Shown piece by piece: positions 5,334-51,756 of a stretch of 64,000 nucleotides of DNA. The stretch's first letter is position 1. Each line of letters begins with the position of its first letter. Source of the stretch: a virus. A program made the translations under genes and the position numbers. The stretch spans positions 1 through 64,000 of the IMG/VR virus record IMGVR_UViG_3300033571_007537; one strand, 5' to 3'. The notes beneath the pieces are model-generated. The model worked only from the letters and a program-made list of their open reading frames with translations, ran no database searches and had not been told where the DNA came from.

Positions 5334-5357
5334 TTATATCCTTTTGTCTTTGTATTT

Positions 5358-6497: not shown

Positions 6498-6508
6498 ATT
6501 ATCTCCTA

Positions 6509-25970: not shown

Positions 25971-28900
25971 CTAAGTAAGAAGTCTGAGCAATTTACTCAT
26001 CTGAGATGAGATTTCTGCCTGACTGTAGACGTCGCTACCAGACTTAAAAGCACGAAGCTCCGCAGTCGCGATATCGGCATCTTCCTTACCAATTTTCTTC
26101 TCCACACGCTCAATCATGTCATCCATGAGGTTAGATAGTGCAGGAGGAAGGTCACTGTATTTGAGCTTTCGTGCTTGGTTACCAAACCCGAGTGGCAGGT
26201 TAGCGATAACCTTGCCTAGCTCAGCTGCTGAAGTACGAACGTTCTCCAGCGAAACTTTATTTAGGGCACCAGAATCTAGGCGGTCCACGATGTCGAGCAG
26301 CTTTCCAGCAGCGTTAGCCGATGCAGTATAGTCACCTACTTCGTGTAGGCCCTCTACATACTTAGCTTCTTCGACAATGTTTTGTAGACCAGCTACACCT
26401 AGGTCCTGCTTTAGACGAGCAAGAACCTTACGGAACTTGCCAGCCTCATCACGCGGTTGAGTCTTTCCAGGAACATACTTACCATCGACCATCTGACCAT
26501 CGAGGTCTGTTGATTCATCAACAACATCAATCTCGTCTGGAGTGTCAGTAATTTCTTCTGGAGTTACAGGCTCAACCGCATCAGCTTTTCCCGAGACATC
26601 ACCCTGAGGGGTTGGTGTCGGAGTTGGCGTAGGGTTTCCCATAATTGGGTTGCCGTTCTTATCTAGCATTGGCTCGCCATTCTCATCAAGAATTGGCTGC
26701 ATCTCTACTGGAGCGGCTACTACGGCTGAAAGCACTGAAGCAGTTAGGCGCATAGAATCTAGCTTGGAGTTAAACTCTGCGTTAGCAGCGTCCTTCCATT
26801 CCTGAGGAACTAGGTTGCTACGCTTTAGCTGACGTGCTCGCTTGATAATGAAGTTACGTACTGCTGCACGCTTACCTTCTTTAGCACGACCGTATGCGTG
26901 AATAGCATTCTTTAGGTCGTCCTCATTACGAATCGGGAACGAACCATCTGGAAGTGCCTTACCCTCTTGTGCAAGAGACTTACGCTCACGTCTAGAGATG
27001 TTAGCAAACTCGTCGTCGTAAGAGAATACAGAGTCAATCTTTGATGATAACTCGGCTACTCGAGCTGAAAGTTCAGCATTCTTCTGGGCTTTTACCTCAG
27101 CAAAAAGTGCTTTGGCAGACTCAGAACGAGTGTTCAATTCAGCCGTAGTAAAGGTCTCAAGGCGGGCAAGGCGCTCGTTAAGCTCGGTTAGAGGGTCACT
27201 CTTCATCTTTGCTAGCATCTGAGCACCAGCAGCAACAAGAGCCATAACCTGACCAGAAGCAACCATTGCACGAGCAATAGGGAATCCGGGAACGTTTACC
27301 TGACATACAGCAACAAGTTCTAGTGAGCCACGGATTGGACGCCAGTCACCTGAAGGAGCAGATGCACGAACTGCACGAACCTGCTCAGGGGTAATACCCG
27401 GACGTAGTGAGCCAGAGACCCAAATACCATAAGCGTCTTCGCCTGCGTGAACATCAGCAAAAGCTGAGGCTGTGTCGTCGTAGTGCTTAGCGGCTTGCTG
27501 AGCACTTGCGTGTAGTGGAGCGTGTCCACCTGCAAGGGTTAGTTGCCCTACTGGTACATCGGTTCCATCGGAGGTGCGAACTACACCTGAGTGGAAGTAT
27601 GCATACTTACTCTTTGAACGTGGCGGCTTTGTGCCTCCAGCCATTCCGATGTGGTCGACGTGCCAAGCGGCAATGTGTCCAAAGACTTTACCATCGTCGG
27701 TGACAGTTAGAGGTGTCGCCTTGGTTAGCTTAGGGTTGTCGAACCATTCGGTAGGTGGAGTTAGTGGAATAGCACCAGCAACGTATCCGCAAGCTACAAT
27801 AGCTGCGGCATCTGCCGGGTCCACTTCTTCCGCGTAGACTCCATCTGGAATCACGATATCCTCCTGTGGTGGGGTGGTTGGTTCCTCTTCTAAGAGGAAG
27901 ATTTGGCATTCTTGAAATGCTGGCTTCGGTACTATTGTAGCAGCCATTACGCGTGCTTTATTTATAACAAGTTTGTCTTTTTTGACATCTTTGCTATCTG
28001 ATGCTTCTTTTGCTTCTTCTGCTTCAAACTGGTCCATATCCGCAGAAACTCCACGGATAAAGCCATTACGAACTAGACGCTCAGCCTCTTTACCGTAAAC
28101 ACCTGAATCGAAGACTCCGAAAGCATTTCCGATACCGTTTTCGGTTCTTTCCATGCGGTCGATACGACCAACCACAACAGAGCCCATGTGGCCATCAGAA
28201 GTTTTAATCTGCCATAGCAGAGGCAAAGGCATCTCTCTCATTGTGATTGAGCCCTTACGGAACTTGCGTCCATCTCCAGACTCGATTCCCTCAGGGATAA
28301 CTAGAGGAATAGAGAACGCTGAGCCATAGCTGTCAAGCCCGCTAGCGGTGATTCCACTGATTCGGTCTTTGGCATCTTGGATGCGAGCATCACGAGTTGC
28401 AAGCTCGATGACGTGGTTAGTAGCGTTTAGAGATTCGTTGCTGAAAGACGCACTGCTAGTTAGTCCACGCTTACGCTTTGATAGTTGGCGGTTACGCTTG
28501 TCGCCCGGCCAAACACCATTAACTTCCTTGTGACGTAGAGCACAGTAACCTTTTGCACGAGGACCTAGGTACTTGCCGAGCTGACGAACACAGCGGGTCC
28601 AGTCGCCCGGAGTTCCCCAGCGAATCTTGGCAGCACCTTTACCGCGAGTCCAATAACGGCGAAGCTCTTCGGCGTTTCCTCTGTTGCGGTCTGCACCACC
28701 AGCAGCGGTGATAGAACTTTCAATGAAGCTCATTAAATCTTGGCTAGGTCCCCACAAAACCATAAACGCTTGGTCAGGATTGTAGCCAGCTGAAGCTAGG
28801 ACGCCATCAACCTGCTTTAGAACATCCTGAAGACTTGCCTCATCTAGAGCAATAGTCGGAGGAGGAGTTGCTGACTTCATGTCAGTAAGAATGTTTTCCG

Positions 28901-30698
28901 CACGGACCCACTTCTGGTCAGCACGACGGTAGGTCATTGGGGCAGTTGATTTGTTGCTAGCAGGAACTAAAGCAACTAGGTCAAGTACGGCACGAGGGTC
29001 GTCTTCAGCAACAATAACCATGTATAGAGGCTGGACATCTGAGGTGTCAGGGTTTACTTCGCGCTCTGGCTCTGAATCATTTTCAGTAGCGAACACTGGT
29101 TTTGCCCAAGCTTCGTTTGCTTCTACAGATTCAGAAGCAGTTTTTTTACGCTTCAGTTTCTTTAGAAGTTCGTGCTCGCCCTTAGGCTCTTCTGCAGATG
29201 ACACCATCGGGTCAGGCTTAAAAGATTCACGCTGCTCACGAACCCAAGTGTCCCAGTTGTAAAGAACATCGTGTAAGTCCTTGGTGCTCATTGGAGGTAG
29301 AGTTCCAGGCAGATGAGCCTTCGGTTGGTCAATAGGTGTGCGAGGCTCACCGAGGATTCCAGATGTATCTAGTGGAGCATCAAAGTCCGACTGGGCAGAA
29401 GTAGGGCGTAGGTTTGGCTCTTCAGCTTGACCACCTTCTCCCTCATTCTGAACAAGCTTAGGGTCAACGTTTACTTCGTTTCCGTTGTCAAGCTTGACCT
29501 TCAAAGTTCCATCTGGGTTAAGACCTGAAGAAGTTCCTGCAGCCCTAGGGTCTCCACCAATGGTGACTCTACCGTTGTTAGGGATAAACTTACCGAAAGC
29601 ATCACGTGCTTGGCTAGCTGCTCTTTGAGCACGTTCTTCTGGAGTATCAATTCCATCACCAGACGAAGTAGCCTTTTCAAAAGACTCTCCAGCAGCAATG
29701 ATTGCCTTGTCCATAAATGCCCAGTCGACGTCGTGCATGTGCTGAGACATAAGCTCTGCTTCATCGCGGTCGATGTCAAAGATAGAGATGTTAACGTGAG
29801 GTGCCTGCTCTAAACGGGCAGCAATAATAATCGCAGACTCGGGGTCAATCTCAATGTGAGACTTTTCAACTGTGTCGTATGGGTCATCGAGAGCTTTGTC
29901 GTAGGTCCAAACATCTCCATCAAGAGAGGCTAGGTCTTCCCAAATACCGTCGTCCCAAACATAGACGCGACCATCGACATCTACTTTGTATAGACGGTCA
30001 ATACCAGAGCCGTCCATGCGGACACGGGCTACAAACTCTGGACCACGTGCAACATCAAATGTGTAGGCTTCTTTGAAAGATTCAAGAGGGTCAGAGCCCT
30101 CATAAAAAACTGATTCAGACTCACTAAGGCCAGATGCTTTTAGAGCCTTCTTCTTGTTGTTTTCGGTTTCAACAATGTCAGCAGCCCAACGCCAAGCGGG
30201 GTTCCCGCCCCACAAGGCCCACGCGATTCGTCCGTTGCTTGGGAAGTTATCTTCTCCCGGAGACCAGCCTTTACCCTTTTTGTCTACTTCGTGACGAGGA
30301 AAATACTTAGCGATGTGGCGTACCTTCTCGATGCCAATCTGCCCGCCCTTGGCAAGAGTGCGAGCAGTGTTCAAGCCAACAGGGGTTCCACCACGTTTGT
30401 GCTCTTTACGCCACTTCAAAGCCTTAATAGCCTCTGCTTGGGCAGCTTTTGGAATTGTGTACTTACGGGCACCAGCAGCGACGATTGGGGACTGGACGTA
30501 GATTGCCAGTGCAGACGCTGTTAGGGTTTCAAGTTCTTCGGTTAGTACGTAGTCAGTCGACTCCCACTTGCGTGCACCCTGTAGGGTTGCGAGAGACCCG
30601 CCCTCAACAATGATGTTGAAGTCAGTGTCAAGCACTACAGCGTTGCTCCCATCGGTGATAAGAGCTAGCGAGTCAGTAAGACCAACGACTTTTGGCAT
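25971..30698 (-). CDS. Multidomain capsid maturation protease / scaffold polyprotein
   Basis: Protease core (EG.ESGDGR, LPLLWQ...GH, GVSAD) plus a RH...PSNGRIAWALWGG domain, an LRRYW...KIRWGTPGD..RC domain and an ALPDGSFPI domain. Confidence 0.8.
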   Translation of the reverse strand: MPKVVGLTDSLALITDGSNAVVLDTDFNIIVEGGSLATLQGARKWESTDYVLTEELETLTASALAIYVQSPIVAAGARKYTIPKAAQAEAIKALKWRKEHKRGGTPVGLNTARTLAKGGQIGIEKVRHIAKYFPRHEVDKKGKGWSPGEDNFPSNGRIAWALWGGNPAWRWAADIVETENNKKKALKASGLSESESVFYEGSDPLESFKEAYTFDVARGPEFVARVRMDGSGIDRLYKVDVDGRVYVWDDGIWEDLASLDGDVWTYDKALDDPYDTVEKSHIEIDPESAIIIAARLEQAPHVNISIFDIDRDEAELMSQHMHDVDWAFMDKAIIAAGESFEKATSSGDGIDTPEERAQRAASQARDAFGKFIPNNGRVTIGGDPRAAGTSSGLNPDGTLKVKLDNGNEVNVDPKLVQNEGEGGQAEEPNLRPTSAQSDFDAPLDTSGILGEPRTPIDQPKAHLPGTLPPMSTKDLHDVLYNWDTWVREQRESFKPDPMVSSAEEPKGEHELLKKLKRKKTASESVEANEAWAKPVFATENDSEPEREVNPDTSDVQPLYMVIVAEDDPRAVLDLVALVPASNKSTAPMTYRRADQKWVRAENILTDMKSATPPPTIALDEASLQDVLKQVDGVLASAGYNPDQAFMVLWGPSQDLMSFIESSITAAGGADRNRGNAEELRRYWTRGKGAAKIRWGTPGDWTRCVRQLGKYLGPRAKGYCALRHKEVNGVWPGDKRNRQLSKRKRGLTSSASFSNESLNATNHVIELATRDARIQDAKDRISGITASGLDSYGSAFSIPLVIPEGIESGDGRKFRKGSITMREMPLPLLWQIKTSDGHMGSVVVGRIDRMERTENGIGNAFGVFDSGVYGKEAERLVRNGFIRGVSADMDQFEAEEAKEASDSKDVKKDKLVINKARVMAATIVPKPAFQECQIFLLEEEPTTPPQEDIVIPDGVYAEEVDPADAAAIVACGYVAGAIPLTPPTEWFDNPKLTKATPLTVTDDGKVFGHIAAWHVDHIGMAGGTKPPRSKSKYAYFHSGVVRTSDGTDVPVGQLTLAGGHAPLHASAQQAAKHYDDTASAFADVHAGEDAYGIWVSGSLRPGITPEQVRAVRASAPSGDWRPIRGSLELVAVCQVNVPGFPIARAMVASGQVMALVAAGAQMLAKMKSDPLTELNERLARLETFTTAELNTRSESAKALFAEVKAQKNAELSARVAELSSKIDSVFSYDDEFANISRRERKSLAQEGKALPDGSFPIRNEDDLKNAIHAYGRAKEGKRAAVRNFIIKRARQLKRSNLVPQEWKDAANAEFNSKLDSMRLTASVLSAVVAAPVEMQPILDENGEPMLDKNGNPIMGNPTPTPTPTPQGDVSGKADAVEPVTPEEITDTPDEIDVVDESTDLDGQMVDGKYVPGKTQPRDEAGKFRKVLARLKQDLGVAGLQNIVEEAKYVEGLHEVGDYTASANAAGKLLDIVDRLDSGALNKVSLENVRTSAAELGKVIANLPLGFGNQARKLKYSDLPPALSNLMDDMIERVEKKIGKEDADIATAELRAFKSGSDVYSQAEISSQMSKLLRLLT

Positions 30699-37300: not shown

Positions 37301-40300
37301 GAACTGAGAAAGTAGTTAGCTGCTTAGATACACCAAGCTTCACACCCTTGCCAGTCTTTACGCCAACTACTACACCGACGTAGTCATCAACACCTGCTAC
37401 GTCTCCATACTGGAGTTTGCTTGCAGGGATGTATTCAAATACTTCGCCAGCCTCTGTTGTGAGTTTAGGGTAAGGCTGTTCTTCTAGTCCTGCGGCTTCT
37501 GGTTCTGCTGGGACAGCATCGAGTCCACTATCTGCTGGTAGCTGGTCTCCGCCCACTGGGCTAGTTCCTGCTGGCTCATCTCCTGCGGGTTCTTCGGTAG
37601 CTGGACCATCTGAATCTTGTTCGGTTCCGCTTGTGGATTCTCCATTTTGCTGTGCCTTGCCTTTCTCGGTATACACGTAATTGCCTGTTGAAATATCATA
37701 CACTGAAAGCTCTCCGCGTGCATCTGCACGTGCAAGGGCTTCCTCTTCTGTTGCGGCTACTTCGCTGACGTCTAGGTAAACTTTACCGTTTTCAGCATCG
37801 TGCCATGTTCCTAGGAAGAACCCTGGTTCTCCTAGTTTCTCTGCGTTCTTAAGCGCGAACGCTTCTAGAATCGCTCTACCCTTTGCAGCGTCAAAGAAGT
37901 CTGCCGCTTCGACAACTTCTTCACGCTTAGTTAGGGTTCCGTCTGGAAGTGCTACATCTGGTTCCATCGCAACGATGAATCCTTGAGCAGGTGAACTGCC
38001 ATCAACGAAGTCAATAGTGCCACCGCCGTTAGCACCTGTACGGCTAACGATACTTTCTAGACCCTTTGGTGTAGTTGTGGCAGGAACAAAAATTGTGGAT
38101 AGGTCGTACTTGTCTAGGATGCTCTTACGACGAAGCTTTAGAAGGTCAGCTAGGACGCCAGCTTTTTCAGGGTCGCTGGAAACAATTCCATTTACCAACT
38201 GGTCAATCTGCTGGTCGCTAATCTTTTGAAGAGCCTTGGCTGATTCGAGCTTCTGCTCTTCTGTCATACTGCCAAATACTGCTGTGCTGTACGGGTTCTT
38301 TCCGTTAATCAGAGTATCAATTTCAGTGGCTTCTTCATTGAAAGCATCGCCCTTAGGGGCACCTTGAGCACGGAATAGTAGTGCGCCACCCGGGTCAACA
38401 CGAACTGGTTCGCCATTTGCATCTGAAACAATGTTGTCGTATCCAGTACCAGCAACGTCCCAGTTTGCTAGCCATGCGTCAACTGCAAAGCCCTCTTGGA
38501 TTTTTCCAATAAAGTTCTTGTCGTCTAGCTTTTGACCTAGGTCTGGCTTGGCACCTTCAATCATTGGAGAGAATACAACTTCAGTACCGTCAGCCAAAAT
38601 ACCCTTACGAAGTTTGGCGGTTTCAATGCCTAGAGCTTCGTATAGTGCTGCTGCTAGAACTTCGTTATCTGCGTGCAGTTTGCTTTGAGCAACCTTTGCG
38701 TAGATTCTGTTGCCGTTCTCGTCTTCGTAAGTTCCGCCCTCGTTTGAGCCCTGCTTCTCGCCAACTTTTTTATAACCGCTTAGGTCTGCGAAAAGGCTAG
38801 CGTCTTCAGTTACCTGAGCAACTGTTGCTTTAGAAACTGTTGGAGCAGCATCTTCTGTTTTAGAAACTTCGTCAAGGTCTGCAAGAATCTTGTTAGTGTC
38901 GACGCCCTGAAGTTGTAGAGCATCACGAACAGCGTCCGCTTCTACGGTGTACGCTGGGCCCTTGTTGTTACCCTCTTCGTCTTTCATCTGAAGACGTACT
39001 GAGGAGTCTCCTCTGTTCAGAGCAATACGCAATCCACCCTCTAGGGCGAACTTGTTAAAGTTGTCAGCGATGAACTGTGGCTCGTCGCTAACACCCTCAG
39101 GGAAGCCACTCTTGTCCTCTAGAGGGACGTAAGGGTCAATACCTAGTCCATACTGGATACTTAGGTCAGGGTCGTTCTCAAGTAGCTTGGAGCCCTCTGC
39201 CGGGGTCTCTGGAAGTACTGCTTTAACCTCTGGAGCCTTGGCTGGCTTAGCTTCATCAATCTTGTCCAATTCGCTAGGAGCCTTCTCCTGAGCGGCTGGC
39301 TTGATTAGTTCAGCCTTGACTTCATCTTTGTTCTTTTTGCTGTTAGCAGCCTTAGCCTTTTTAAGGTCTTTGTCCTCGACTTCAAGAGTTGCATCTACAA
39401 CAGCAACCAAAGCGTCTTTTAGATTTGAAAGGTCTTTTGGAAGTGAAAGAGCAGCAGCCATCATCTGTGCAGTGATAACTTCTTCGTCTCCGCCATTAGC
39501 AATCTGCTTGATGCGGTCAGTTATAGGTGAGTCAGAATTTCCAACAAACTGGGTTAGAGCAGGGGTTGTCAGATTTGAACCAGCAAGGCTCTTTAGGGCA
39601 GCGTCAACCTTTGATAGGTTCTTGCCAGACTTAGCGGCAACAGCAGCAACTCGGTCTTCTGCGCTATAGGTTTCTGTCTCGGCTGCGGCTGGCTTCTCTA
39701 GAACATCTGGAGCGTCTTCAATTGCTTTGTCAAACTTTTCGGTGTCTTTGTTAGCAGCGACCTGAACTTTGCCCCAGCTCTGAACACGAGCAACAACTTC
39801 AGTTTCACCCTCGCCCTTGTAGATTGTAGCGTCACGCTTTACAACGTAAACTGGCTCGTTCTTTTGGAACTTTCCATCTAAACCGCTACCAGAGTTTTCA
39901 GCACCGCCATCAATCTCGGCTTGCTTCTTGAACGCAGGGTCAGACTTTTTACCTGAGTAGTTGTTGTAGACATCAACGATGTAGCCATCTTCAGACTTGT
40001 AACGCTTGTCTGGGTCAGAGTCTGATTCTTTTTTGTAGTTAGGGTCTTCGGTCCAACCATTAGGGACATCTTTTTTGGTCTTAAGAAGTTCGGCAACATC
40101 AAGAAAGTCAGTTCTAGTTTGGTCTACGTTCTGACCCTTGCTATCTTTTAGCAGGTTCTCAGGAGTAACACCTTGTAGTGCTTGGGTACGGTCAGCTGGA
40201 GCGACAATGATACCGCTACCTAGTTCAGGGTGGTTCTTGACCTCAATCTCAACGGTGCTTGGGTCTTTACCGCTACCTAGCGAGGTACCAATGTGAGAGT

Positions 40301-41006
40301 CAATCTTTCCAGCGGAGCTACGGATGTATAGACGTACTCCATCACCAGTTCCAGCGAAGCGACCTTCGGAGTCACGAGCTTGAGCCTTAGCACGTAGGGA
40401 ACGGGCTAGCTTGGAGTTTCCTCCAGCGTATGGGTTGAAGGCTGCAAGAAGAGCAGAAACCTGTTCGTTGTTTCTAATCTCTGCTGGAACCATAGTGCCA
40501 GTAGCAGACAGCTTTGCAAAGAGGTAGACACGCTCGGCGCTCTCGGGACGGGCGGCGTAGGCGGACGCAACAAGCGGACGAACGGAGTCATCAATACGCG
40601 GGTCAGCGGCAATCCAACGCGCACGAGCGTGTCTGATTCCAGCAGCAGTGAGTGAGTGTGGTGCTGTGGAAAGAGGGTTGGTGATTGGGAGGAGGTCTGT
40701 GTTTTTAGTTCCGTTGCGGGTAGCTGTACCCTTAGCAGATAGGTCTAGGAAGTTGGTTACGTCGCGGACTACTAGAAACTTACGGGTGTCTAGAGGCAGA
40801 CTTGCGCTAGCTACAAGAGAGCGTTCTGCTACTTCGTAAGCAGTATCAACTGGAATCTGACGTACTGTTGGAGTGCCCTCGTTGTGAGAAGACACTAGGT
40901 CGAAGATTACTTGACGTAAGCCTTTGGTTGGTACGAATGTCTCTGACACAACGATGTCTGAGTCGAGGTTCTCGATTAATGAGTTGAGAATGGAGCTCAC
41001 GCCCAC
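31371..41006 (-). CDS. Giant polyvalent protein (3211 aa) with a HipA/PI3K-like kinase domain, SH3/KOW-like modules and a possible C-terminal enzymatic domain
   Basis: Kinase-like GSNEGG..YAK..NEVLA..LY..DAWLANWD..DN..VDPGG at about 38.2-38.8 kb; repeated (E/K)L..GD modules; AGGAAGG RBS and GTG start. Confidence 0.75.
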   Translation of the reverse strand: MGVSSILNSLIENLDSDIVVSETFVPTKGLRQVIFDLVSSHNEGTPTVRQIPVDTAYEVAERSLVASASLPLDTRKFLVVRDVTNFLDLSAKGTATRNGTKNTDLLPITNPLSTAPHSLTAAGIRHARARWIAADPRIDDSVRPLVASAYAARPESAERVYLFAKLSATGTMVPAEIRNNEQVSALLAAFNPYAGGNSKLARSLRAKAQARDSEGRFAGTGDGVRLYIRSSAGKIDSHIGTSLGSGKDPSTVEIEVKNHPELGSGIIVAPADRTQALQGVTPENLLKDSKGQNVDQTRTDFLDVAELLKTKKDVPNGWTEDPNYKKESDSDPDKRYKSEDGYIVDVYNNYSGKKSDPAFKKQAEIDGGAENSGSGLDGKFQKNEPVYVVKRDATIYKGEGETEVVARVQSWGKVQVAANKDTEKFDKAIEDAPDVLEKPAAAETETYSAEDRVAAVAAKSGKNLSKVDAALKSLAGSNLTTPALTQFVGNSDSPITDRIKQIANGGDEEVITAQMMAAALSLPKDLSNLKDALVAVVDATLEVEDKDLKKAKAANSKKNKDEVKAELIKPAAQEKAPSELDKIDEAKPAKAPEVKAVLPETPAEGSKLLENDPDLSIQYGLGIDPYVPLEDKSGFPEGVSDEPQFIADNFNKFALEGGLRIALNRGDSSVRLQMKDEEGNNKGPAYTVEADAVRDALQLQGVDTNKILADLDEVSKTEDAAPTVSKATVAQVTEDASLFADLSGYKKVGEKQGSNEGGTYEDENGNRIYAKVAQSKLHADNEVLAAALYEALGIETAKLRKGILADGTEVVFSPMIEGAKPDLGQKLDDKNFIGKIQEGFAVDAWLANWDVAGTGYDNIVSDANGEPVRVDPGGALLFRAQGAPKGDAFNEEATEIDTLINGKNPYSTAVFGSMTEEQKLESAKALQKISDQQIDQLVNGIVSSDPEKAGVLADLLKLRRKSILDKYDLSTIFVPATTTPKGLESIVSRTGANGGGTIDFVDGSSPAQGFIVAMEPDVALPDGTLTKREEVVEAADFFDAAKGRAILEAFALKNAEKLGEPGFFLGTWHDAENGKVYLDVSEVAATEEEALARADARGELSVYDISTGNYVYTEKGKAQQNGESTSGTEQDSDGPATEEPAGDEPAGTSPVGGDQLPADSGLDAVPAEPEAAGLEEQPYPKLTTEAGEVFEYIPASKLQYGDVAGVDDYVGVVVGVKTGKGVKLGVSKQLTTFSVLNPKTGKIKTYQWSPSTTIAHIRNNKSAGEISTQYQAEYNKKKAEQSAPPSATTPAPTPAAEPTPPLEWKSVVNVGGVSVDEAVDPETGYILRVVYEQNSSSSGGSASKADYVTAQLLDENRNKIAQKSFGSGEATFADGKAAAAQLLVDTKADGQVSKAEPEVVDVPEEELVSEVVETNREVIQINTETTNLDVKIKDVGEGSVINWGLSTATITPTVNNTFDAFVKDAQGNDKKANFKTKEAAEAWVGDVIAEATALEENPITKNPAGEASKGFSVHKGGFLAPATEAQVESIKKMLAAKDITPERKQEIENLLTKEDLNKGEIGVVIGELKQAQSLPEEKLNPALSESSPGVLAVNKVSVGNGEIMEVKTKDGSLFSKDGLNIGAVMPSKSKSGAWTAITQDGDVSTIKLTDYASEAAALDAFGSYHTANGTFAQNPYGNAPEENAPEAETAADQIISDDDNNDLTPKDPTDILDPNLITDQLLKNNPDFEVMPNGDIKIGEATQTMKIGGKIYKYEAYARRTKRERFYVYMKETDLITGEQRVLKIGKEFHSFKALSSRIDKAKTAIDGGNPRGFFNHDKTKIQKYVPIAGAPEVDLTEGLKSYVNSEVGPKTPAELATALSSFFADISNDNYTVSKDVLDKLAADAGLPSSFVDEVIAKMAENKAKSAQSLPDSFFEGKGVPKAPHVSYDGETIVKKGDTVDWTDQKTGKVYRGVVESVIYKHNSKDYLYSDQMLVIFPDLNAEQGYESNRQRWRVSSNLKVAEPSSSLSEPFYPKLKEAMTQENVGTGETPEFVEPTTPPAPTNKTPKPITPSTTEQSSGPSKEDIFNWFGDTPVVTGDSVFNPQNGKSGKVTGNFMAPSGYAGFTIEYNDGTKETIDNETSGSAFNLVQKVDPASAPEPAKTPALQSDATPEIQKSDLGPSFVDVDGVKHPLYDSNNALYSDAILGTNTPRKWSELQSGDLLHVNDEWVHVVSAGYGDDGVFRILTDSIDNDGNHTLKTISLDEKKKMFLDMQTSAVVVPNEPKVPGSVELDKVIDKDTPATQESIDTLVSIANNWDLSTSPDLEKKYNDFIASLLFNTPEQIKQLAVNELVAEINAGIVNSDILAKSDKELTTEDVTGLADSVETSMANTPIGEEVANAATEVKELATELDASKSPAADADPNYDGYPVKKLKFEDVTIKGGKKAPFTSIGKITTNELKVGDVIRRGVGDKTMYRQIVAVGVDGIRGRITTRIIYPTEGNSVYTMSGFQKNQGKLETGTYYSWNSFKIYRPTESNIANGYISTPVSGTPQPLSATAEKVDGLAGFLNAQGVKDVGVNKKSEAGLAQLGLSGEIMGVPYNMLPTNFNPTVVWKEAFDAQKVKTKNDKYVITGAVVTSQDGLSTGIVTDTDKPNATLSVVWLHGPAAGNKENNILSNTVDDTENWVSPEGAKTAGVEVNAEKIQQGKDIIASKIKYVVDTYGPTIEAKKASIANQLAAEKLAKELKAAKAAALVKGSGAQIVDVAPVIGWDESAYPELPSLQTALDESKNKTGLQGVFGQEVLVDADSIEDSTLSIGVVENKGKPATRLTFGLTSWTLDDASTTKPGFLREQIISNPEVKTLPGVKISRITHEEGKISKVYENDYVTSTKTGKGEGKTYVIPIKDSNGNIIGRASIFRANAGTSTPKFVGVNTQGGAEGPLAYHNKVQVQFDDIATPEQIEAALKAVGVQQVRPATTIDTQAMLENKIIALFGDVPDGSENLTGEARQKVLDSVKDNYGFTAADMKPRNERGAVHFMMPKESAEKLTKALNFTNLFHGFAVPTYASDTYSDKAKWVYNEIFGNGSGASRSAADRALHGIYFTPGSGDADINNVGGAYVFTNKTPNETSSGHVGDMRDLKFDIDSQKVIARLGLYGNPNDKWGKLEGSQFSTLSSESLSEVMLKGEVLYEDLNVIRVREKPLLTEILQYFQDQGVTEINGKPLNKFFIFGK

Positions 41007-41131
41007 ACCTTCCTGCTATACGTATAAAAGATTGCGTCATTACGATTTAATAAGCTTAGGAAGATTTTATCCTATTATTTAGCCAATGATTCCGCTTTTT
41101 GCGCAAAAAGATACGCTAGACACAAAAACTA

Positions 41132-41323
41132 TTATAGCTCGTCATCAATCTTCTGATTAATGGAAAAGTCAGTTATTTTGCTGACATCATGGTGGATTGC
41201 AGCAGTGACTGGTTTCACTTCTGGTTTTGGTTCTGGCTTCTTTTTCTTAACAAGGTCTTCCAAATTATAAACTTGGTACTCGTCATCACCAGAGGTGAAT
41301 CTATCTAGGCGGTCTTTGTCCAT
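41132..41323 (-). CDS. Small hypothetical protein (63 aa)
   Basis: TAATG coupling to the upstream stop; contains a VTAA motif. Confidence 0.55.
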   Translation of the reverse strand: MDKDRLDRFTSGDDEYQVYNLEDLVKKKKPEPKPEVKPVTAAIHHDVSKITDFSINQKIDDEL

Positions 41324-44300
41324 TAGCTAATCCTTTCAAATACTGCGTAACCATCTGAATCCCAGCCCAAGAACCTTAGGGCAGTGTTACGTGGGAGAAG
41401 GTATTCGTCCTCTGTATCATACCAGCTAATGGTGCTTAGGTCAATTCCGCTGGTGTTGTTAGGCATGACAATACGCATCGGGATTTGGTTAACATCTCCT
41501 GTACTTATGTCAATATCGCGGGCCTCATCAGAAAATACTTTGGTATGAGATGTTGATGAATAAGCTCTGTCAATAAGAACTTGCCCCGGTTGAGGGTTTA
41601 GTCTCTCCCAAGTAGATAGCTTCAACATTCTATAAACAGTCGACCCCGGCGGTAAATGAGCACTGAGAGTCATAGCTTCGTCAATGTCTTTAACTTGCTT
41701 TGAGTTTTCCATATCTGGGTCAGCATCACGCAATCCATTGTTAATTAGTAGCGAGCTGTCAACGTAGGTAAAGGCAGATTCACCAACGGAAGTGAGTGCA
41801 TCGAAGTCAGCATCCTGTGGAGGTAGTGGCTTGTAGTTCGGGTCCTTCGTTAAAACTTCAAGAGTCTTTTTACGTAAAGCATCACGGTCTTTTTTGCTTG
41901 GGTCCTTACCTATTTTAGAAAGCGCGTCAGCTTCAGGAGAACTTGGGACAGCAATAAATCCGTTTATATAAACTGGCTTATCTTTATTGAGGGTGTTGTA
42001 GACAGGCTCGTTGACTTCTACCTCTGGCATAGGCAGCTTACTGCGGTCTACCTTAACTTTTTCTTTTGGCTTTACTTTAGGTAGAGGCTTGATTGGAGTT
42101 GGGATTGGGGCTTTAGGTTTAGGGGCATCTACTTTAGGTCTTACTGTTAGGTGTAGACCCTCAACTCCATTAGAGCCAATAGGTTTTCTTTCAGCGGAGA
42201 CAACCTCAAACTTGGCGTTTCTAGCTAAAAGGACTTCCTCTTCATCGCCATAGCCTCCATCGATATCTAAGATGTCAATGTCTAATCCGCTACTACCTTT
42301 AGGCATATCGAACTGTACAACTACAGGAACCTTGCCCTCAACGTCAGTAGCAAATCTCTCGGCTATGGCAGGGTCTTTACTGGTAGAAGAAAATGTAGAG
42401 AAAGACCAAGTGCTACCCTCCGTGGTCCTGCTAGCAAACTCTTCAAATTTTTCTGGCGAGATGCGAATACCGCGATGGACAGAAGTGTCTGTCTCAAATT
42501 TAGTATTGGCAATAGCAGAGTCCAAACCTTCAATGGCTTTAATTGCGTCTATCTGGTCCTTTGTTAGACCATCTAGGTCGACATCGGAGTCTTTGCCATT
42601 AACTGCGTCGATATAGCTTTGAATAGGTTTATCTTTTAGAGCCAGTATTGTTTCGTTGATTTTGTCTTCGAAAATATAGTTGTAAATCGAAGACATCTCT
42701 TTACTGGAGTAGTTAGCTTGAAGTGCTTGGTCTGGCTGTGGCTTTTGTGGAACTATTGGTTCTGGTTCTGGGTCTGTGGCTTCTGAAGTTGCATTAACGG
42801 CGTAGTCATCAACGGTGGCACGCTTAGGCTCTTGCTCGATGATTTCGACGTCAACGATTCTTGTGCCTTCAACTGTGTTGATTCCAGTAACTCTGTATTT
42901 AGTGTTTGGCGGAAGAAGAACTTCCTGCTCCTGCGAACCATAGCTGGAGACGTTGTCTGGAATCTTAAAACCCTTTTGACCCTTACGTGCTACAACTCTG
43001 AATAGTGCACGACCGACTGTTCCTGTGAGGTCCATGTCTGTATAGAAAGCTGCCCGCTGTCTGTCAGTTGTGTTTGAGGCGATTCCTCGGTCGACATACT
43101 CGTCGCCTACTTTTAGATTCAACAACTCTTCCCATTGGTTGGCATCTTCCTCGGGATATGCCCTACCTCTGTAGATTAGAGTGTCTACTTTTACTTCACT
43201 ATCGTCAATCAAATCAAGAAGTACTTGGATTCCCTTTTTTGACTTTTCTGTTACATCTTCTCCAGCTCGTAAGAACTTAGTTGCTTGTTCGTAGCCAGTG
43301 TCAGTAAACCATTCAAGAACGTTCTCTTGTCTATCAGTTAGGTCTGGATTCTCGGTGAATGGGTCGTTGAATGAATTCGTGCCTTCGACCTCTGGTTCGT
43401 CGGCGAAGTAGTTGTCTAGTTCTTTGAATTCCTGAGGTTGTACTTCAGGTGTGGCTTCGGGTGTAGGAGGGTCTAACTCAATCCAAATATGGGCTTGCCC
43501 ATCGATAGGCTCTGCCTTAACTACTGTATACGAGAGACCGTGAGGCATCAAGAACTCGCGCTCCTCGAAACCTAAAGTCACGCCATGAGAACCTGCTGGA
43601 GCTAAGACATGTAATTGGAATTTCATCTCTTTGCCGTACCTGTTTTTTAGAGGTTTACCAGCAGACAGCTCAGTAGTCGTAGATAAAAATCCTTTGCTTT
43701 CCCACTTTTCACCGACTATAGATTCTAAAGACCTAACCTCTTTATCCCCCGAATCAGTAGATTTCTCTAGCTTGTACGTACCGTCTTCTTGCTGGACAAA
43801 ATCATAACCTCCCCAAGTGGTCTGAGACCTTAAGAAAGACATTGGTTCAGGCAAAGTAGTAGACATAGCATGTTCTTGTAAAGCATCAATTTGTGCTTTA
43901 ATCTCGTCATCGACATCAGCTACATTGCCTCTTAGATAGTCATTCATGTAATTAAAGCCCATACCAGTGTATTCGTCAATCGCGTCATTTAAGACGTCGC
44001 TATACTCGTCCTCGTCTGTCTCATCGAGTCTAATCACTTCACCGTACTCTGACGGCTTATATCCGTCAGTGACATCTGGTGTGGCAGTTTCTTTTATATC
44101 AGCTGGAAGCTCATCTGTGCGGCTACGGTGAACCATGAAAGGCTGACCAGAAAGTTCTTGGAAAACAGAAAGCATCTTGAGGGTGTTGTCTGTCTTATCG
44201 TTCTTGAAAGACGCTGGGTCACCATTTCCATAGCCAGCTGGAGCCAAGGACCCATCCATGCCACCAATTCGTGTAATGTCTAGACCAACCTTGCCGTCAC

Positions 44301-45681
44301 CAACATCAACAAACAATCTCTTGATGTCGCTAAAACCCAGTGACTCGTCAGACGCTTTGTATTCGTCGTAAGCACCTTCGCCATAAAGCTCGTCAAACTT
44401 TGCTTTGATGTCAGCGGCAGTCTTACCATGCTTCCCGAGGAACTCGGCTGCATCGTTACCTAGAGGGTCAACTGGTAGTAGGTCGAACTGTCCTGCCAAA
44501 GCGTAGTGGCGATACGGAGTGCTACCAGTAGACCTGCCAACACCATCTTGATACTTCTCAAGCCAAGGGGCTAGTTCAGGTTGTGCCAAATCTCCAACGC
44601 GACGTACACGGTCAGGTTGTGAAGTTACGCCACGACCAATGACAACTCCGAACTCGTCTTCAAGTTGGCTGTAGCCAATCATTCCAAAAACTTCGTCTGG
44701 CTTAACGTCGATTTCGTAACGTCCGTTGCCGTTGATGTTCGGTGCTTGGCTGTTGTAGTCATAAGCAAAGTCAGCGTTGGTTGTAACGTAACCTAGTGCT
44801 GATTCCTCTGGGGTGCCCTTTTGGTTTGTAGCGTTGCGATAAAAGGTAATCTTGCCATCAGGGTTCATGTTCAAGACACGCTCTGCGTAAGCCTTGTTGA
44901 TGTCCTTCATTTCCTGAGGGATTTCATCAAGACTGTTAGGAGACTGACTCATCTGTCCGACAGAGAGTTCTTTTACTCTGCCCCAGAAGTCTTCAAAGGT
45001 TGGATACTTTTCTTTCCAACTCGGGTCTTGGTTCTTTAGGTTTTCGTAGACAAGGTTGTAGTCTTCCTTAGCACCCTTAGCAATGTCTGACTCTTCTCCC
45101 CAGAAGTTGGTGTTCGTCTGACGAGGAACTGGGAATCGCCCCTCTTCTTTAAGATTCTGAGTAACTGTAGAAAGTTTACGTTCCTGAACCTCGCTACCAG
45201 AAAGATTTTCTTTTCTTTCGGTTACTGGTTTAGCGACACCCAATTCCTTAGGCTCGTACTTGATTGACCCGATGTCTTGAATTGCTGCCTCGTCGCGAGC
45301 ACTTACTTCATTGCCCTCGTAATCCTTACCCGGTTGGATTCCCATGCGGTCAAGGTCTTCTTGCTTGAGGGTAGCAATTACAGTTGAGCCATTGTCAGAA
45401 CTTACGTAGTAGTAGCCATCTGGAACGTTCGGGTCGCCCTGAACATAAACTCTTCCGAAAACGGAGTCGTTGCTTCCTTCAAACTTGCCAATAACATTTA
45501 CAACTCGTCCGTCTGCAAGACGTACTTTGAATTTAATTGACCTACCCATATCAACGAACCGCTTATAGCGGTCACGCCATTGTCTACGCCAGAAGCCCTT
45601 GTTGGCTCCTTCGTTACCGATAACGGCAACTAGAGCGGTGCTCTGCGGCTTAGGTATGCTAAAGGACGTTATGTGACGCAT
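41323..45681 (-). CDS. Tandem ADP-ribosyltransferase protein (4 VIP2-like R-S-E domains plus 1 divergent ART-like domain)
   Basis: FYR/VTT/EDE; FLR/FLSTT/ERE; YRG/ASNT/EQE; HRG/FSSTS/EEE; VYR/YSSTS/EDE. Confidence 0.85.
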   Translation of the reverse strand: MRHITSFSIPKPQSTALVAVIGNEGANKGFWRRQWRDRYKRFVDMGRSIKFKVRLADGRVVNVIGKFEGSNDSVFGRVYVQGDPNVPDGYYYVSSDNGSTVIATLKQEDLDRMGIQPGKDYEGNEVSARDEAAIQDIGSIKYEPKELGVAKPVTERKENLSGSEVQERKLSTVTQNLKEEGRFPVPRQTNTNFWGEESDIAKGAKEDYNLVYENLKNQDPSWKEKYPTFEDFWGRVKELSVGQMSQSPNSLDEIPQEMKDINKAYAERVLNMNPDGKITFYRNATNQKGTPEESALGYVTTNADFAYDYNSQAPNINGNGRYEIDVKPDEVFGMIGYSQLEDEFGVVIGRGVTSQPDRVRRVGDLAQPELAPWLEKYQDGVGRSTGSTPYRHYALAGQFDLLPVDPLGNDAAEFLGKHGKTAADIKAKFDELYGEGAYDEYKASDESLGFSDIKRLFVDVGDGKVGLDITRIGGMDGSLAPAGYGNGDPASFKNDKTDNTLKMLSVFQELSGQPFMVHRSRTDELPADIKETATPDVTDGYKPSEYGEVIRLDETDEDEYSDVLNDAIDEYTGMGFNYMNDYLRGNVADVDDEIKAQIDALQEHAMSTTLPEPMSFLRSQTTWGGYDFVQQEDGTYKLEKSTDSGDKEVRSLESIVGEKWESKGFLSTTTELSAGKPLKNRYGKEMKFQLHVLAPAGSHGVTLGFEEREFLMPHGLSYTVVKAEPIDGQAHIWIELDPPTPEATPEVQPQEFKELDNYFADEPEVEGTNSFNDPFTENPDLTDRQENVLEWFTDTGYEQATKFLRAGEDVTEKSKKGIQVLLDLIDDSEVKVDTLIYRGRAYPEEDANQWEELLNLKVGDEYVDRGIASNTTDRQRAAFYTDMDLTGTVGRALFRVVARKGQKGFKIPDNVSSYGSQEQEVLLPPNTKYRVTGINTVEGTRIVDVEIIEQEPKRATVDDYAVNATSEATDPEPEPIVPQKPQPDQALQANYSSKEMSSIYNYIFEDKINETILALKDKPIQSYIDAVNGKDSDVDLDGLTKDQIDAIKAIEGLDSAIANTKFETDTSVHRGIRISPEKFEEFASRTTEGSTWSFSTFSSTSKDPAIAERFATDVEGKVPVVVQFDMPKGSSGLDIDILDIDGGYGDEEEVLLARNAKFEVVSAERKPIGSNGVEGLHLTVRPKVDAPKPKAPIPTPIKPLPKVKPKEKVKVDRSKLPMPEVEVNEPVYNTLNKDKPVYINGFIAVPSSPEADALSKIGKDPSKKDRDALRKKTLEVLTKDPNYKPLPPQDADFDALTSVGESAFTYVDSSLLINNGLRDADPDMENSKQVKDIDEAMTLSAHLPPGSTVYRMLKLSTWERLNPQPGQVLIDRAYSSTSHTKVFSDEARDIDISTGDVNQIPMRIVMPNNTSGIDLSTISWYDTEDEYLLPRNTALRFLGWDSDGYAVFERIS

Positions 45682-45708
45682 GACCAGCGTCCCTACTTTC
45701 TGTAAGGA

Positions 45709-46236
45709 CTAGGCGCTGTACTCGTCTACAACAACTGGGTTAGAGATTGCCTGCTTAAGTTCTGAAACACTCATGCCTAAGCTTGCAGCAACATACCACA
45801 TGTGCTTCTTTAGCTTGTCATCGCGACCTGCTAAGAAGTCAGCAATGCCCTGCTCGTTGCAGTCGTTAGCGATTGAGAACGCACGTAGGTTACACGCAAT
45901 AATCTGTACTAGGTGTCCAGCCAAGTCCATCAACATTGTTTCTGGAGCTGCTGATGAAACGCGAACTGCCTTAACAGATGTAAGTGCTAGGAAGTCTTCT
46001 AGTAGGTATGGTGCATCAAAACCTAGCTTAAGAATGTTCTCAGCTGTTGGGTCAATGCTGTCTTCGATGTCTTCGTAGATTCCTGCGAAGAAAGCGTGGT
46101 ACTCAGAAAAGTCTGAGCCCTTTACGTTCCAGTGGAACCCCTGAACAACCTTGCTCAGTACTACTGCATCGGCTAGTACTTCTGCCAGTGCACCTGCAAG
46201 AGCTTCGTGCTTTGCATCCTTGTTAATTGGGTACAT
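45709..46236 (-). CDS. dps: Dps / ferritin-like DNA protection protein (start reassigned to MYPINK)
   Basis: FHWNVKG..F...H..F...Y......D..AE signature and C-terminal K..W; AAGGAA RBS. Confidence 0.9.
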   Translation of the reverse strand: MYPINKDAKHEALAGALAEVLADAVVLSKVVQGFHWNVKGSDFSEYHAFFAGIYEDIEDSIDPTAENILKLGFDAPYLLEDFLALTSVKAVRVSSAAPETMLMDLAGHLVQIIACNLRAFSIANDCNEQGIADFLAGRDDKLKKHMWYVAASLGMSVSELKQAISNPVVVDEYSA

Positions 46237-46246
46237 TTTTATTTCC

Positions 46247-48031
46247 TTATAGTTCAGGTTCTGCCAAAGGCGGAACTGCTTCTTCTGTTGGTTGAGCCTC
46301 TGCTGGTGCTTCGGCTTGTGGATTACCGCCCTCTGGAGCAGGCGCACTGTTTAGTGCTTCCGCAACTTCTGGAGGTAGTGGAGCGACGCTTGTAGCTTGT
46401 TGAGCTGAACGTGCGGCGTTCATAATCTCTGGGGCAACGGCGTTCATCAAAGCTTCTGTAAGCTCTGGTGTAATCATGCCCTTCTCTAGCATAATGCGAA
46501 GTCCAAGTTCTGTTGGGCTTGGGGCATCTGCTTCAGAGAATCCGTGTGCTCGACGCCATGTGTCGTAAGACACTGCCATCTTGTCAAATCCAGCATCGGC
46601 GTCTGCTGCACGGTCGTTACGAGTTGCAACCTGTGATGGGTCATACCAAATAACAATCTTGTCAACTGCTTCTGGAGGGAAGCCATTTGCTTTCAAATAC
46701 GGACGTAGGTAGACAACAGTAAGTGCGTCAGCAATCAAAAGCATTAGCGGCTCAATGTGTGCCTTGTATAGGCTCTCGTCAATCTGAAGTGCGTTTGAAT
46801 ACTTAACGTTAGCAAGACCAGTAACGATGTCCTTAGGGACGTCGAGACCTTGCATAATTCTTTCAAGCACTCGGTCAGCACGGTCAGCAAGAACAGAGTC
46901 AAATGAACGCTCAAACTTGAACTGCTTAATCTTGTCGCCAAGTTCTGCTGGACCACGAATGATAAGTGGAACAACTGCGGACGCTGAGTCTTCATCCTTA
47001 ATAGGAGTTGTCATCGCGTCGATTAGTTGCTCTTCGAAGTCGTCTTGAGCTTCCTCAGGAGTTGGCTCTGCGTATAGACCATCTTCATCTTCGTAAGGAT
47101 AGTTTGGGTCTGGAGACGCGGCTACTGAAAGACCGTCTGGTAGGTAGAGAGCGCCAGCGTTCAGTCTGGAACGCGCAGTCGCACGGAACGTGCGGTTAAG
47201 TAGAAGTAGTTCAGCACAAAGGTCAAGTAGACCTCGCATTGAAGAATCAGACTCTTGAGTGTAACGTGGGTGAGTCTTCCAAATACGTCCAACGAACGCG
47301 TCCTTTGGTAGACGGATTGCACTCTTGCTTGCAGCACTTGAAGCAGAGCCACCAACGTCGCGCATCGGGTTTACAACATAGTTGCCACGTGCGTCAATCT
47401 GAAGTTCGTCAGTTGAGCGGATGTCCCAAGACTCTGGAAGTCCAGTTCCGATACGCTCTGGAATCTGAACTAGGTAGCATTCGCCAGTAACCTGTAGGTT
47501 GAGAGCCATATCCTTAAGCATTCCCGGAACGCCACCATAAGCAGACTCAAGACGAGCAAGTGCACGTTCTGATGCTGAGGCAAGCTGAGGGTCAATCTTC
47601 TCTGAACGAGAAACTGGAGCAGGTGCGTGGCTCGGGTCTTCAATGATTGCAGGGTAAAGACGGATGCGAGATACAACTGAGGCAACTAGGTTGAAAGCGT
47701 ATTTGATTTCACCGATTGCGTCGTAGTATTCCCAAGCTTCTTGCTGCCATGAGAAAGCGGCAGACTGACGTCGATTCTTAAAACGCTCTGCTTCACCTTT
47801 GTCATTCAAGTTCATCTGTGCAGCGGCAGCTGTAAGTGGACGTACGTCAGAGTATGAAGGAGACTCTTGGTAGACAACACCAAATGCGTCTACGCCAACA
47901 CGAACGCCTGATGGCAAAGTCATAGGAGTTACTGAAGCACGGCGTGAGTTCGCAGACGTGGCACGGAACGGACTCGCACCTTGAGGTGCACGGTTCGGTG
48001 CGTCTTTTGCGTTACGTTTGAAAATGCCCAA
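46247..48031 (-). CDS. Portal protein
   Basis: WQ.EAW.YYD.IGE, L.V.GE.Y, R.W..HP, SRL..G, SAVVP motifs of actinophage portals. Confidence 0.85.
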   Translation of the reverse strand: MGIFKRNAKDAPNRAPQGASPFRATSANSRRASVTPMTLPSGVRVGVDAFGVVYQESPSYSDVRPLTAAAAQMNLNDKGEAERFKNRRQSAAFSWQQEAWEYYDAIGEIKYAFNLVASVVSRIRLYPAIIEDPSHAPAPVSRSEKIDPQLASASERALARLESAYGGVPGMLKDMALNLQVTGECYLVQIPERIGTGLPESWDIRSTDELQIDARGNYVVNPMRDVGGSASSAASKSAIRLPKDAFVGRIWKTHPRYTQESDSSMRGLLDLCAELLLLNRTFRATARSRLNAGALYLPDGLSVAASPDPNYPYEDEDGLYAEPTPEEAQDDFEEQLIDAMTTPIKDEDSASAVVPLIIRGPAELGDKIKQFKFERSFDSVLADRADRVLERIMQGLDVPKDIVTGLANVKYSNALQIDESLYKAHIEPLMLLIADALTVVYLRPYLKANGFPPEAVDKIVIWYDPSQVATRNDRAADADAGFDKMAVSYDTWRRAHGFSEADAPSPTELGLRIMLEKGMITPELTEALMNAVAPEIMNAARSAQQATSVAPLPPEVAEALNSAPAPEGGNPQAEAPAEAQPTEEAVPPLAEPEL

Positions 48032-50352: not shown

Positions 50353-51756
50353 CTACCTAATCTTGAACCCTCCACCATTGCCACCTCTAAACGGACTAAT
50401 CTTGCGAGCACCCATAGAGCGGGCAGTAATCTTGCCACCACTAAACCCAGCAGGAGGCTTGATTAGAAGAGCCGTGAGGGCGTGAACCAACGCGTCCACG
50501 CGGTCAGGCGACTTGCCCTCTCCGGGAATCCAAGAATACATTTGCGATTCTAAGTCCGTGAGGTACCCGACATGATGGACGCGACCTTGCTCATAGGCAA
50601 GCGTGATAGGTTCTGCCCGCAACGCTTTTCCGTATTTGGAGTGAACCTCTAACACCGTGACGCTAGGGTCTATTGTGTGTATCGCGTTCTTCACTAATGC
50701 TCCACCTTGATTCACCTCCGCAACCACAGGGCAACCCCACTTGCGAGCCATCTCGACCACCCGCATTGCCCAAACATTAGGCGACCCCAAGACTGAGGCG
50801 TCCTCGACCACCCACGCTTGACGCTTATACAAATCTCTATCTGCCGTGCTTGAAACCACTACGATACCGCACTCATCTCGAGGGTTCTCCGCGACTGAGG
50901 GGTCTACCCCAATTACGCGAAGAGGCGTGCTTGAGGGGTAATTGCCGTGTCTATGCTTTTCAATCATTTCCTCAGTCCAGAGAGCACCCTCAACATTGTC
51001 CAACATCTCGCCATAAAGTTCTTGCTTAGCAAGTGAAGTTCCCGCGTATACGCCCAGCATTGTATCCAGATACGCACCAGAGAGGTTACCCGCATTGTCC
51101 AGCGTCGAGCCACGAGTTACGACCACATTGCGACCCTTATCCGCCTCCTCGAGCAACTTGTAGAGCAACGGCACACGCTTAGGAGTTGTAGTTACGACCA
51201 TTTTCGGATACGCACCCAAACGAGTTCCAACACGCAAGTTATCAAACGCAGTCATACCAGCCGCGTCGGGAGTCTGCCTCCAAGCCGCAATCTCATCTCC
51301 CCAAGCGTGAGTGAACTGAGGTCCACGCAGAGAGTCAGGCTCATCAGCAGTAAACAGAGTTGCCGTGTTGCCATTAGGCCAGGTCAGGCGACGCTTAGAC
51401 GGCTCATACAGAGGCTTTTCAGATGGAGGCGAAACATTCATAATCCCAGACTCACCCTCAACGATTACATCTCGCACATCAGCCGCAGTTCGGGCTACGA
51501 GGGCAAAACGGCGTTGCCCAGTTGTAGTGTATTTCGCTTGCTCCCGCACCCACTCAGAGGCGAGGCGAGTCTTCCCAAAACCACGACCCGCAAGCACTAA
51601 CCAGATGTTCCAGTCTTCACCCTCAGGGCAGAATTGCTCAGGGCGACCCCAGACAGACCAGTCCCAGAGCAGAGAGTCCGCGTCCATACCAGCCAGCACC
51701 ATCGCCCGTTCAGCCTCAGGGAGGTCAGCGATTTGTTCCATTATAGATTTACCCAT
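50353..51756 (-). CDS. terL: Terminase large subunit
   Basis: AGRGFGKT Walker A, LRGPQF..AWGDE, TTTP, GVDP, E.NQGG, SPDRVDA. Confidence 0.95.
   Translation of the reverse strand: MGKSIMEQIADLPEAERAMVLAGMDADSLLWDWSVWGRPEQFCPEGEDWNIWLVLAGRGFGKTRLASEWVREQAKYTTTGQRRFALVARTAADVRDVIVEGESGIMNVSPPSEKPLYEPSKRRLTWPNGNTATLFTADEPDSLRGPQFTHAWGDEIAAWRQTPDAAGMTAFDNLRVGTRLGAYPKMVVTTTPKRVPLLYKLLEEADKGRNVVVTRGSTLDNAGNLSGAYLDTMLGVYAGTSLAKQELYGEMLDNVEGALWTEEMIEKHRHGNYPSSTPLRVIGVDPSVAENPRDECGIVVVSSTADRDLYKRQAWVVEDASVLGSPNVWAMRVVEMARKWGCPVVAEVNQGGALVKNAIHTIDPSVTVLEVHSKYGKALRAEPITLAYEQGRVHHVGYLTDLESQMYSWIPGEGKSPDRVDALVHALTALLIKPPAGFSGGKITARSMGARKISPFRGGNGGGFKIR

Follow-up and report, generated by a model that had tools for sequence, protein, structure and literature searches.

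What does a phage gain from several ADP-ribosyltransferase (ART) domains in a single protein of its head module, and how many of them are there? The question is raised by a gene in a 64,000-nucleotide stretch of viral DNA (positions 1 to 64,000 of the IMG/VR record IMGVR_UViG_3300033571_007537; the window), which is part of a 90,990-bp record estimated to be about 53% complete. The gene is an open reading frame (ORF) at 41323-45681 on the minus strand, with an ATG start and an AGGGA-like ribosome-binding site upstream, and encodes a protein of 1452 amino acids (aa), labelled P0001. A preliminary description of the window had counted five ART domains in this one head-module protein. Four of these, termed D1 to D4, match the ART family PF03496 above its cut-off; the fifth has no Pfam match. 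Head-packaged ARTs are already known (T4 Alt) or predicted (polyvalent and MuF-fused proteins), and P0001 is set apart from the polyvalent, MuF-fused and Alt precedents by four ARTs of the R-S-E type (catalytic R, S and ExE) on an anchor that is not MuF.

Four ART domains in one polypeptide

The Pfam family ADPrib_exo_Tox (PF03496) is found four times in P0001, and each segment taken alone exceeds the 23.4-bit gathering cut-off, with segment-by-segment E-values between 3.7e-10 and 5e-13. A six-frame search of the 91-kb record returned these four sites alone, even at E<=10. The protein also matches the PHROG 'Alt-like' family (E 1.6e-14). The gene is laid out as follows, with pLDDT (predicted local distance difference test) values taken from the structural model described below.

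41323..45681, minus strand: whole ART gene, 1452 aa; module A and module B, followed by four ART domains with disordered linkers between them
45232..45612, minus strand: module A (aa ~24-150), a small SH3/Tudor/KOW-like beta-barrel
44077..45231, minus strand: module B (aa ~151-535), a conserved alpha/beta domain of no known family
44593..44868, minus strand: core of module B (aa 272-363) with invariant motifs, previously described as the fifth ART-like unit
43474..44004, minus strand: D1 (aa ~560-736); R618, S667-T-T, E707-R-E709; PF03496 39.9 bits
43336..43473, minus strand: linker 1, P/E-rich (low pLDDT and sequence)
42835..43335, minus strand: D2 (aa ~783-949); R838, S869-N-T, E918-Q-E920; PF03496 34.7 bits
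42733..42834, minus strand: linker 2, P/E/Q-rich (pLDDT <50 at model residues 423-460)
42136..42732, minus strand: D3 (aa ~984-1182); R1070, S1099-T-S, E1147-E-E1149; PF03496 49.2 bits
41896..42135, minus strand: linker 3, P/K-rich, then a short structured stretch that leads into D4 (linker pLDDT <50 at model residues 646-659)
41332..41895, minus strand: D4 (aa ~1263-1450); R1351, S1376-T-S, E1424-D-E1426; PF03496 48.5 bits

The catalytic R, S and ExE are present in the right order in all four domains, D2 keeping the first S of its S-N-T. The ExE motifs lie at 43552-43566 (D1), 42919-42933 (D2), 42232-42246 (D3) and 41401-41415 (D4), and the motif positions given in the preliminary description are accurate for these domains. 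From 169 family proteins the best relatives of each domain were taken and aligned with it. For D2, 26 sequences with identities as low as 26% retain R, the first S and ExE, while the middle position of S-x-S/T varies among them (T, H, S or N), so the S-N-T of D2 is an ordinary variant. The motifs are retained in six relatives of D3 and in 13 of D4, and in 12 of these 13 the protein ends with D4. D1 has only two close relatives, and its conservation is therefore of little weight. Since each domain keeps R, S and ExE, each is probably an active transferase; judged by these residues, the chain carries four apparently active enzymes. Among characterised R-S-E ARTs, ExE rather than QxE goes with arginine as the acceptor, which suggests arginine for D1-D4 as well.

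The domains have diverged from one another as described, with pairwise identities of 19-26%. In a tree of 147 family ART domains they fall into four clades of 25, 81, 14 and 27 members, whose support is modest (0.66-0.81). Their placement in separate clades indicates old paralogues that have been brought together, and not a recent tandem duplication. The earlier notion of a battery of different ARTs is thus supported for four domains, by their separate lineages and by the catalytic residues kept in distant relatives.

A model of aa 540-1452 was built with AlphaFold2 from a 12-sequence alignment (mean pLDDT 70). By domain, pLDDT is about 73-94 in D2-D4 (D3 73-88, D4 80-94), 40-60 in D1 and below 50 in the linkers; sequence and low pLDDT together bear out the P/E/K-rich linkers reported between the ART domains. 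The top PDB matches of the D1-D4 model in Foldseek are the two-domain enzymes iota Ia, CDTa, C2-I and VIP2 (E 1e-15 to 1e-13, ~450 columns), and the single-domain ARTs Vis, Certhrax and C3 come next in the list (E ~1e-9 to 1e-8). In the structural alignments the iota Ia and CDTa rows cover D1+D2, and another iota Ia row covers D3+D4. The model thus predicts the ART fold for D1-D4.

A two-module anchor with exchangeable cargo

The N-terminal 540 aa of P0001 are the conserved two-module anchor (A+B) of a large family with exchangeable cargo. Modules A and B recur in more than 100 metagenomic protein clusters; 68 cluster representatives are found at E<=1e-30, mostly via module B. Module B itself is present in about 60 cluster representatives at variable position: alone, as in P0062 (495 aa) and P0070 (468 aa), with module A, or within larger proteins. 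The cargo behind the anchor consists of zero to seven R-S-E ARTs, GNAT, DUF3626, ArdC-N with MPTase-PolyVal, or a weak ART-PolyVal. At least four R-S-E ARTs occur in ten anchor-bearing proteins, and two proteins that share module B, P0025 and P0026, carry ArdC-N and MPTase-PolyVal. The anchor is a second head-module anchor, unrelated to MuF in sequence, that organises cargo in a sizeable unannotated metagenomic family.

Close relatives of P0001 differ from it by whole cassettes. P0002 is 84-100% identical to P0001, but only 22-38% identical in the D1 slot (aa ~520-750). P0003 is ~78-98% identical elsewhere and is without D3. P0005 keeps the anchor and D4 (~70-98% identical), the remainder being different. 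The anchor and the C-terminal D4 are the constant ends of these proteins, and the middle ART cassettes are exchanged. Near-identical relatives with single-cassette swaps provide a natural series in which to seek the host targets or defences that drive the exchange.

Two further features were observed in the family. One polypeptide of 4285 aa (P0073) has seven R-S-E ARTs, and another, P0072 (2759 aa), has five. A second, partial copy of module B, comprising its helical part, occurs in P0008 (aa 619-774), where it includes the conserved YRN...DE core, and in two loci (L018:3603-4061 and L023:6036-6596).

Module B and the proposed fifth ART

The FYR/VTT/EDE motif on which the fifth ART unit had been based (aa 277-344; 44650-44850) is real, and is the most conserved stretch of the 390-aa module B. 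Over ~85 homologues Y281, R282, N283, G297, Y298, S/T300, D342 and E343 are invariant; E341 is variable. The core has no Pfam ART match even at E<=10. Module B as a whole found no match in Pfam, PHROG, NCBIfam, PDB or BFVD, and module A found none in PHROGs, Pfam or NCBIfam. Two weak matches were dismissed: a Tub match (E 9e-4) is below cut-off, and the sole match of the module B profile to PDB sequences (E 0.58) is due to chance. An ART-PolyVal match was likewise rejected as the identity of module B, as it falls in the C-terminal cargo of P0055, outside the module.

The model of aa 1-545 has a mean pLDDT of 83.5, with module B mostly above 90. The fold search proposed in the preliminary description, which returned ART enzymes for D1-D4, gave 1og3 (ART2.2) as the best ART match of the module B region, with E 0.74 and a template-modelling (TM) score of 0.22. 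The wider structure-search lists for the N-terminal model were dominated by the small module A barrel and held no fold for module B; because the barrel filled them, these lists barely test module B.

Profile comparison with hhalign gave a probability of 0.06% for module B against an alignment of four ART sequences. In the comparisons with ART profiles the probability stayed below 2% and E was 0.04-0.09; an 88-sequence module B profile matched to one of 147 ART sequences reached E 0.09. The alignment is colinear: YRN is placed over YRG, GY-x-S over the strand with STS and DE over ExE. The strands and helices that surround the three motifs come in an order parallel to that of D2-D4. However, 5 of 150 column permutations equalled the score at E 0.09, so the likeness of module B to ARTs is suggestive, not significant. 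In language-model space the nearest named clusters for module B are ART-fold families (0.81-0.85, a range that provides leads only). For P0062, which is A+B alone with no canonical ART, the nearest named clusters are PF03496, PF01129, Mod_ADP_RT and DUF4765 (0.81-0.83). An ART-like fold is seen for DUF4765 in the crystal structure of CNFY (PMC7883292); the corresponding family PF15962 has no match in the 91-kb record.

An ART-like fold for module B is a genuine possibility, although we lean somewhat against it. Five ARTs in P0001 are therefore not established, and the fifth is unproven. More doubtful is the wider proposal that module B is an unrecognised, highly derived enzyme of the ART superfamily, encoded by a core head-module gene of an uncultured actinophage-like lineage, present even without cargo, and serving as a non-MuF hub for capsid-loaded proteins with up to seven R-S-E ARTs. 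If module B were an ART, P0001 would hold five NAD+-using domains and the anchor itself would be an enzyme; if it proves to be an enzyme, it would represent a new conserved activity for phage heads.

Position in the head module

The head-module location originally given for the ART gene is borne out by its portal-adjacent position and by related loci. The minus-strand order is terminase, portal, Dps, ART gene, a 3211-aa giant, a 211-aa ORF, a 1575-aa protein and the major capsid protein. The following neighbouring features are referred to below.

50353-51756, minus strand: terminase
46247..48031, minus strand: portal gene (phrog_776, E 8e-104)
45709..46347, minus strand: Dps/ferritin-like gene between the portal and ART genes (PF00210, E 9e-11)
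41132..41323, minus strand: 63-aa acidic ORF, its ATG overlapping the stop codon of the ART gene (TAATG)
40128..40427, minus strand: copy of module A in the neighbouring 3211-aa protein (its aa ~194-293); hidden Markov model E 2.4e-15, BLASTP E 0.002
25971-30698, minus strand: 1575-aa protein with PHROG head maturation protease or portal matches at aa ~800-1220; it lies upstream of the major capsid protein and is probably a giant that contains a protease

Synteny was compared over 19 related IMG/VR loci. The A+B gene follows terL-portal-Dps in 12 of them and lies just upstream of terL-portal-Dps in the other seven, some of which (L009, L010) leave little or no space for cargo. Since the A+B gene occupies one of two positions, it is a core head-module gene in this lineage. 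In 17 of these 19 loci the portal gene is immediately followed by the Dps gene, which is thus a fixed part of the head module as well.

Module A is a candidate capsid-loading or anchoring domain. Its barrel is preceded in P0001 by the peptide QWRDRYKRF (45556-45582). The pattern Q-x-R-D-x-x-G/K-R/K-F occurs four times in window ORFs of at least 60 aa, always within the three head-module giants, and of these only the 1452-aa and 3211-aa proteins have the full module A barrel. The three peptide-bearing giants (1452, 3211 and 1575 aa) are consecutive, with further sites within 40128-40427 and at 29590-29610 and 26437-26457, all on the minus strand. When the whole of P0001 was compared with 50,697 phage records by tblastn, only module A was matched, in seven Microbacterium phage records; module B and the ARTs found no match there at E<=1e-5, and megablast of 40000-47000 against the same records found none. 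The giants of Microbacterium phages (Pumpernickel gp82 and its relatives) have an N-terminal module A with 45-47% identity over ~130 aa and follow the portal gene like P0001, but have no match to module B or to the ARTs.

MuF (PF04233) has no match at E<=1 in P0001 or the 91-kb record, whereas control genomes were matched. MPTase-PolyVal, ArdC-N and ART-PolyVal are likewise absent from P0001 and from the record. No gene for a macro or ARH ADP-ribose eraser was found in the 91-kb record; this negative is weak because the record is only ~53% complete.

The 63-aa ORF downstream matches no family and is a possible partner protein of the ART protein. A homologue (52% identity over 40 aa, likewise ending in ...DDEL / DEEL) is found behind a D4-type end in L019/L025, and L027 has an analogous acidic ORF behind a distant terminal ART. 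Weakly similar ORFs follow terL in L008, L012 and L013, with no ART nearby. D4-type ends themselves were found in no locus by single-sequence scan and in only three by alignment scan, and the ORF is conserved after such ends in only two or three loci.

Comparison with known systems

The closest structural matches of D1-D4, the enzymatic components VIP2, iota Ia, C2-I and CDTa of binary toxins, also have tandem ART folds in one chain, at an identity of 12-20%. The N-terminal ART fold of binary toxins has no activity and acts as an adaptor, whereas P0001 has four domains with catalytic residues, has no evident pore-forming partner and is encoded in a phage head module. T4 Alt is a virion-packaged and injected ART, its packaging known by experiment. 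P0001 resembles Alt in having head-associated R-S-E ARTs, but has four of them rather than one, and is predicted to be packaged. In T4-like phages the alt gene is associated with baseplate genes and not with the portal (PMC5512222).

P0001 is best compared with the class of polyvalent proteins or MuF effectors, and not just with T4 Alt. In phages and conjugative elements, polyvalent proteins can hold as many as 12 ART copies, which belong to the H-Y-D (Tox-ART-HYD2 / ART-PolyVal) clade (PMC5512222, Iyer, Burroughs, Anand, de Souza, Aravind 2017). P0001 shares with them a large multi-effector polypeptide among virion genes (four ARTs and module B, in the head module), multi-copy ARTs and domain shuffling. 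It differs in that its ARTs are all R-S-E and in that the polyvalent hub domains ART-PolyVal, MPTase-PolyVal and ArdC-N are missing from P0001 itself; its A+B anchor matches no Pfam family. R-S-E ARTs (Alt/VIP2-type) can be stacked four to seven per polyvalent-style polypeptide, whereas the founding survey described such stacking for the H-Y-D clade only (PMC5512222).

Among MuF proteins, MuF-VIP2 fusions from Microbacterium phages (clusters EH and EJ) are predicted virion components (PMC7302621), and single Alt/VIP2 ARTs are fused to MuF head proteins (PMC9503650). These fusions and the related toxins (PMC5576092, PMC7302621, PMC9503650) have in common with P0001 the portal-adjacent slot, a VIP2-type ART on a head-module protein, variable cargo and a small downstream ORF. 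In contrast to them, P0001 lacks MuF, carries four ARTs instead of one and has a different two-module anchor.

Proposed function and alternatives

We consider it fairly likely that the product of the ART gene is a polyvalent effector, synthesised together with the head proteins, packed into the capsid and delivered along with the DNA. In favour of this are the four above-cut-off ART domains with their conserved catalytic residues, the head-module context, the module A held in common with the 3211-aa protein, the varied and exchanged cargo of relatives, and the precedents of T4 Alt, polyvalent proteins and MuF-VIP2 fusions. The A+B anchor would bring the chain into the head, with module B as an enzyme-like domain within the anchor, and the four R-S-E ARTs of different lineages would ride behind it on flexible P/E/K linkers, where the chain may be cleaved. 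The ARTs would be injected with the DNA into the next host cell, and each would probably move ADP-ribose from NAD+ to arginine (or another acceptor) of a different host protein early in infection. Several points weigh against this reading. P0001 has no recognised packaging domain, MuF being absent, and its relatives are all unnamed metagenomic proteins. The D1 model is of low confidence (pLDDT 40-60), D2 carries S-N-T where S-T-S is expected, and arginine specificity would follow solely from the ExE rule of characterised ARTs. The record is also ~53% complete, and partner genes may lie outside it.

A different explanation is a late protein whose ARTs work inside the producing cell, for example on host or phage proteins while particles are assembled, in the style of ModA/ModB; they would not be injected, and the anchor would be used for assembly only. 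The existence of cargo-free A+B proteins conserved near terL, which implies a role of the anchor's own, agrees with this. However, the cargo domains are attached to a head-module protein and are swapped in the manner of conflict effectors, and homologues bear ArdC-N and MPTase-PolyVal, which are hallmarks of proteins moved with DNA (PMC5512222); we therefore regard action in the producing cell as unlikely. A polymorphic toxin of the MuF-toxin type, directed against competing bacteria or superinfecting phages and with the 63-aa ORF as its immunity protein, would account for the variable cargo and for an acidic small ORF that overlaps the stop codon and is kept behind D4-type ends, in a layout shared with MuF toxins (PMC5576092). 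It is somewhat more unlikely still: P0001 has no MuF domain, a single small ORF would stand against four ARTs, weakly similar small ORFs also lie behind terL in loci without a nearby ART, and the window showed no sign of lysogeny.

The other two explanations concern the activity of the domains. Some or all of them could be mainly NAD+ glycohydrolases, forming an NAD sink against host metabolism or NAD-dependent defence, as ART folds are able to hydrolyse NAD+ (PMC9503650) and the 91-kb record has no macro or ARH eraser. This seems improbable, since R, S and an intact ExE together mark transferases of the VIP2/C3/Alt type, and four divergent lineages side by side argue for different acceptors over one substrate. 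The ART folds might instead have lost catalysis and serve as structural or adaptor modules, as the N-terminal ART-like domain does in VIP2 or iota Ia, within an internal or spacer protein of the capsid. Binary-toxin enzymes do contain an inactive ART duplicate, and those two-domain proteins are the top Foldseek matches; but R, S and ExE are kept in all four domains and also in the distant relatives of D2-D4, which makes dead folds very improbable.

Other observations

The region following the 63-aa ORF contains a hairpin, ctttttgcgcaaaaag, at ~41100-41120. Among the related loci, the terL match of L008 is split (L008:5029-7473): residues 1-103 are encoded at 5029-5334 and residues 103-467 at 6358-7473. 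The split points to an insertion of ~1 kb, possibly an intron, an intein or a homing-endonuclease gene, in a terL that is otherwise 77% identical.

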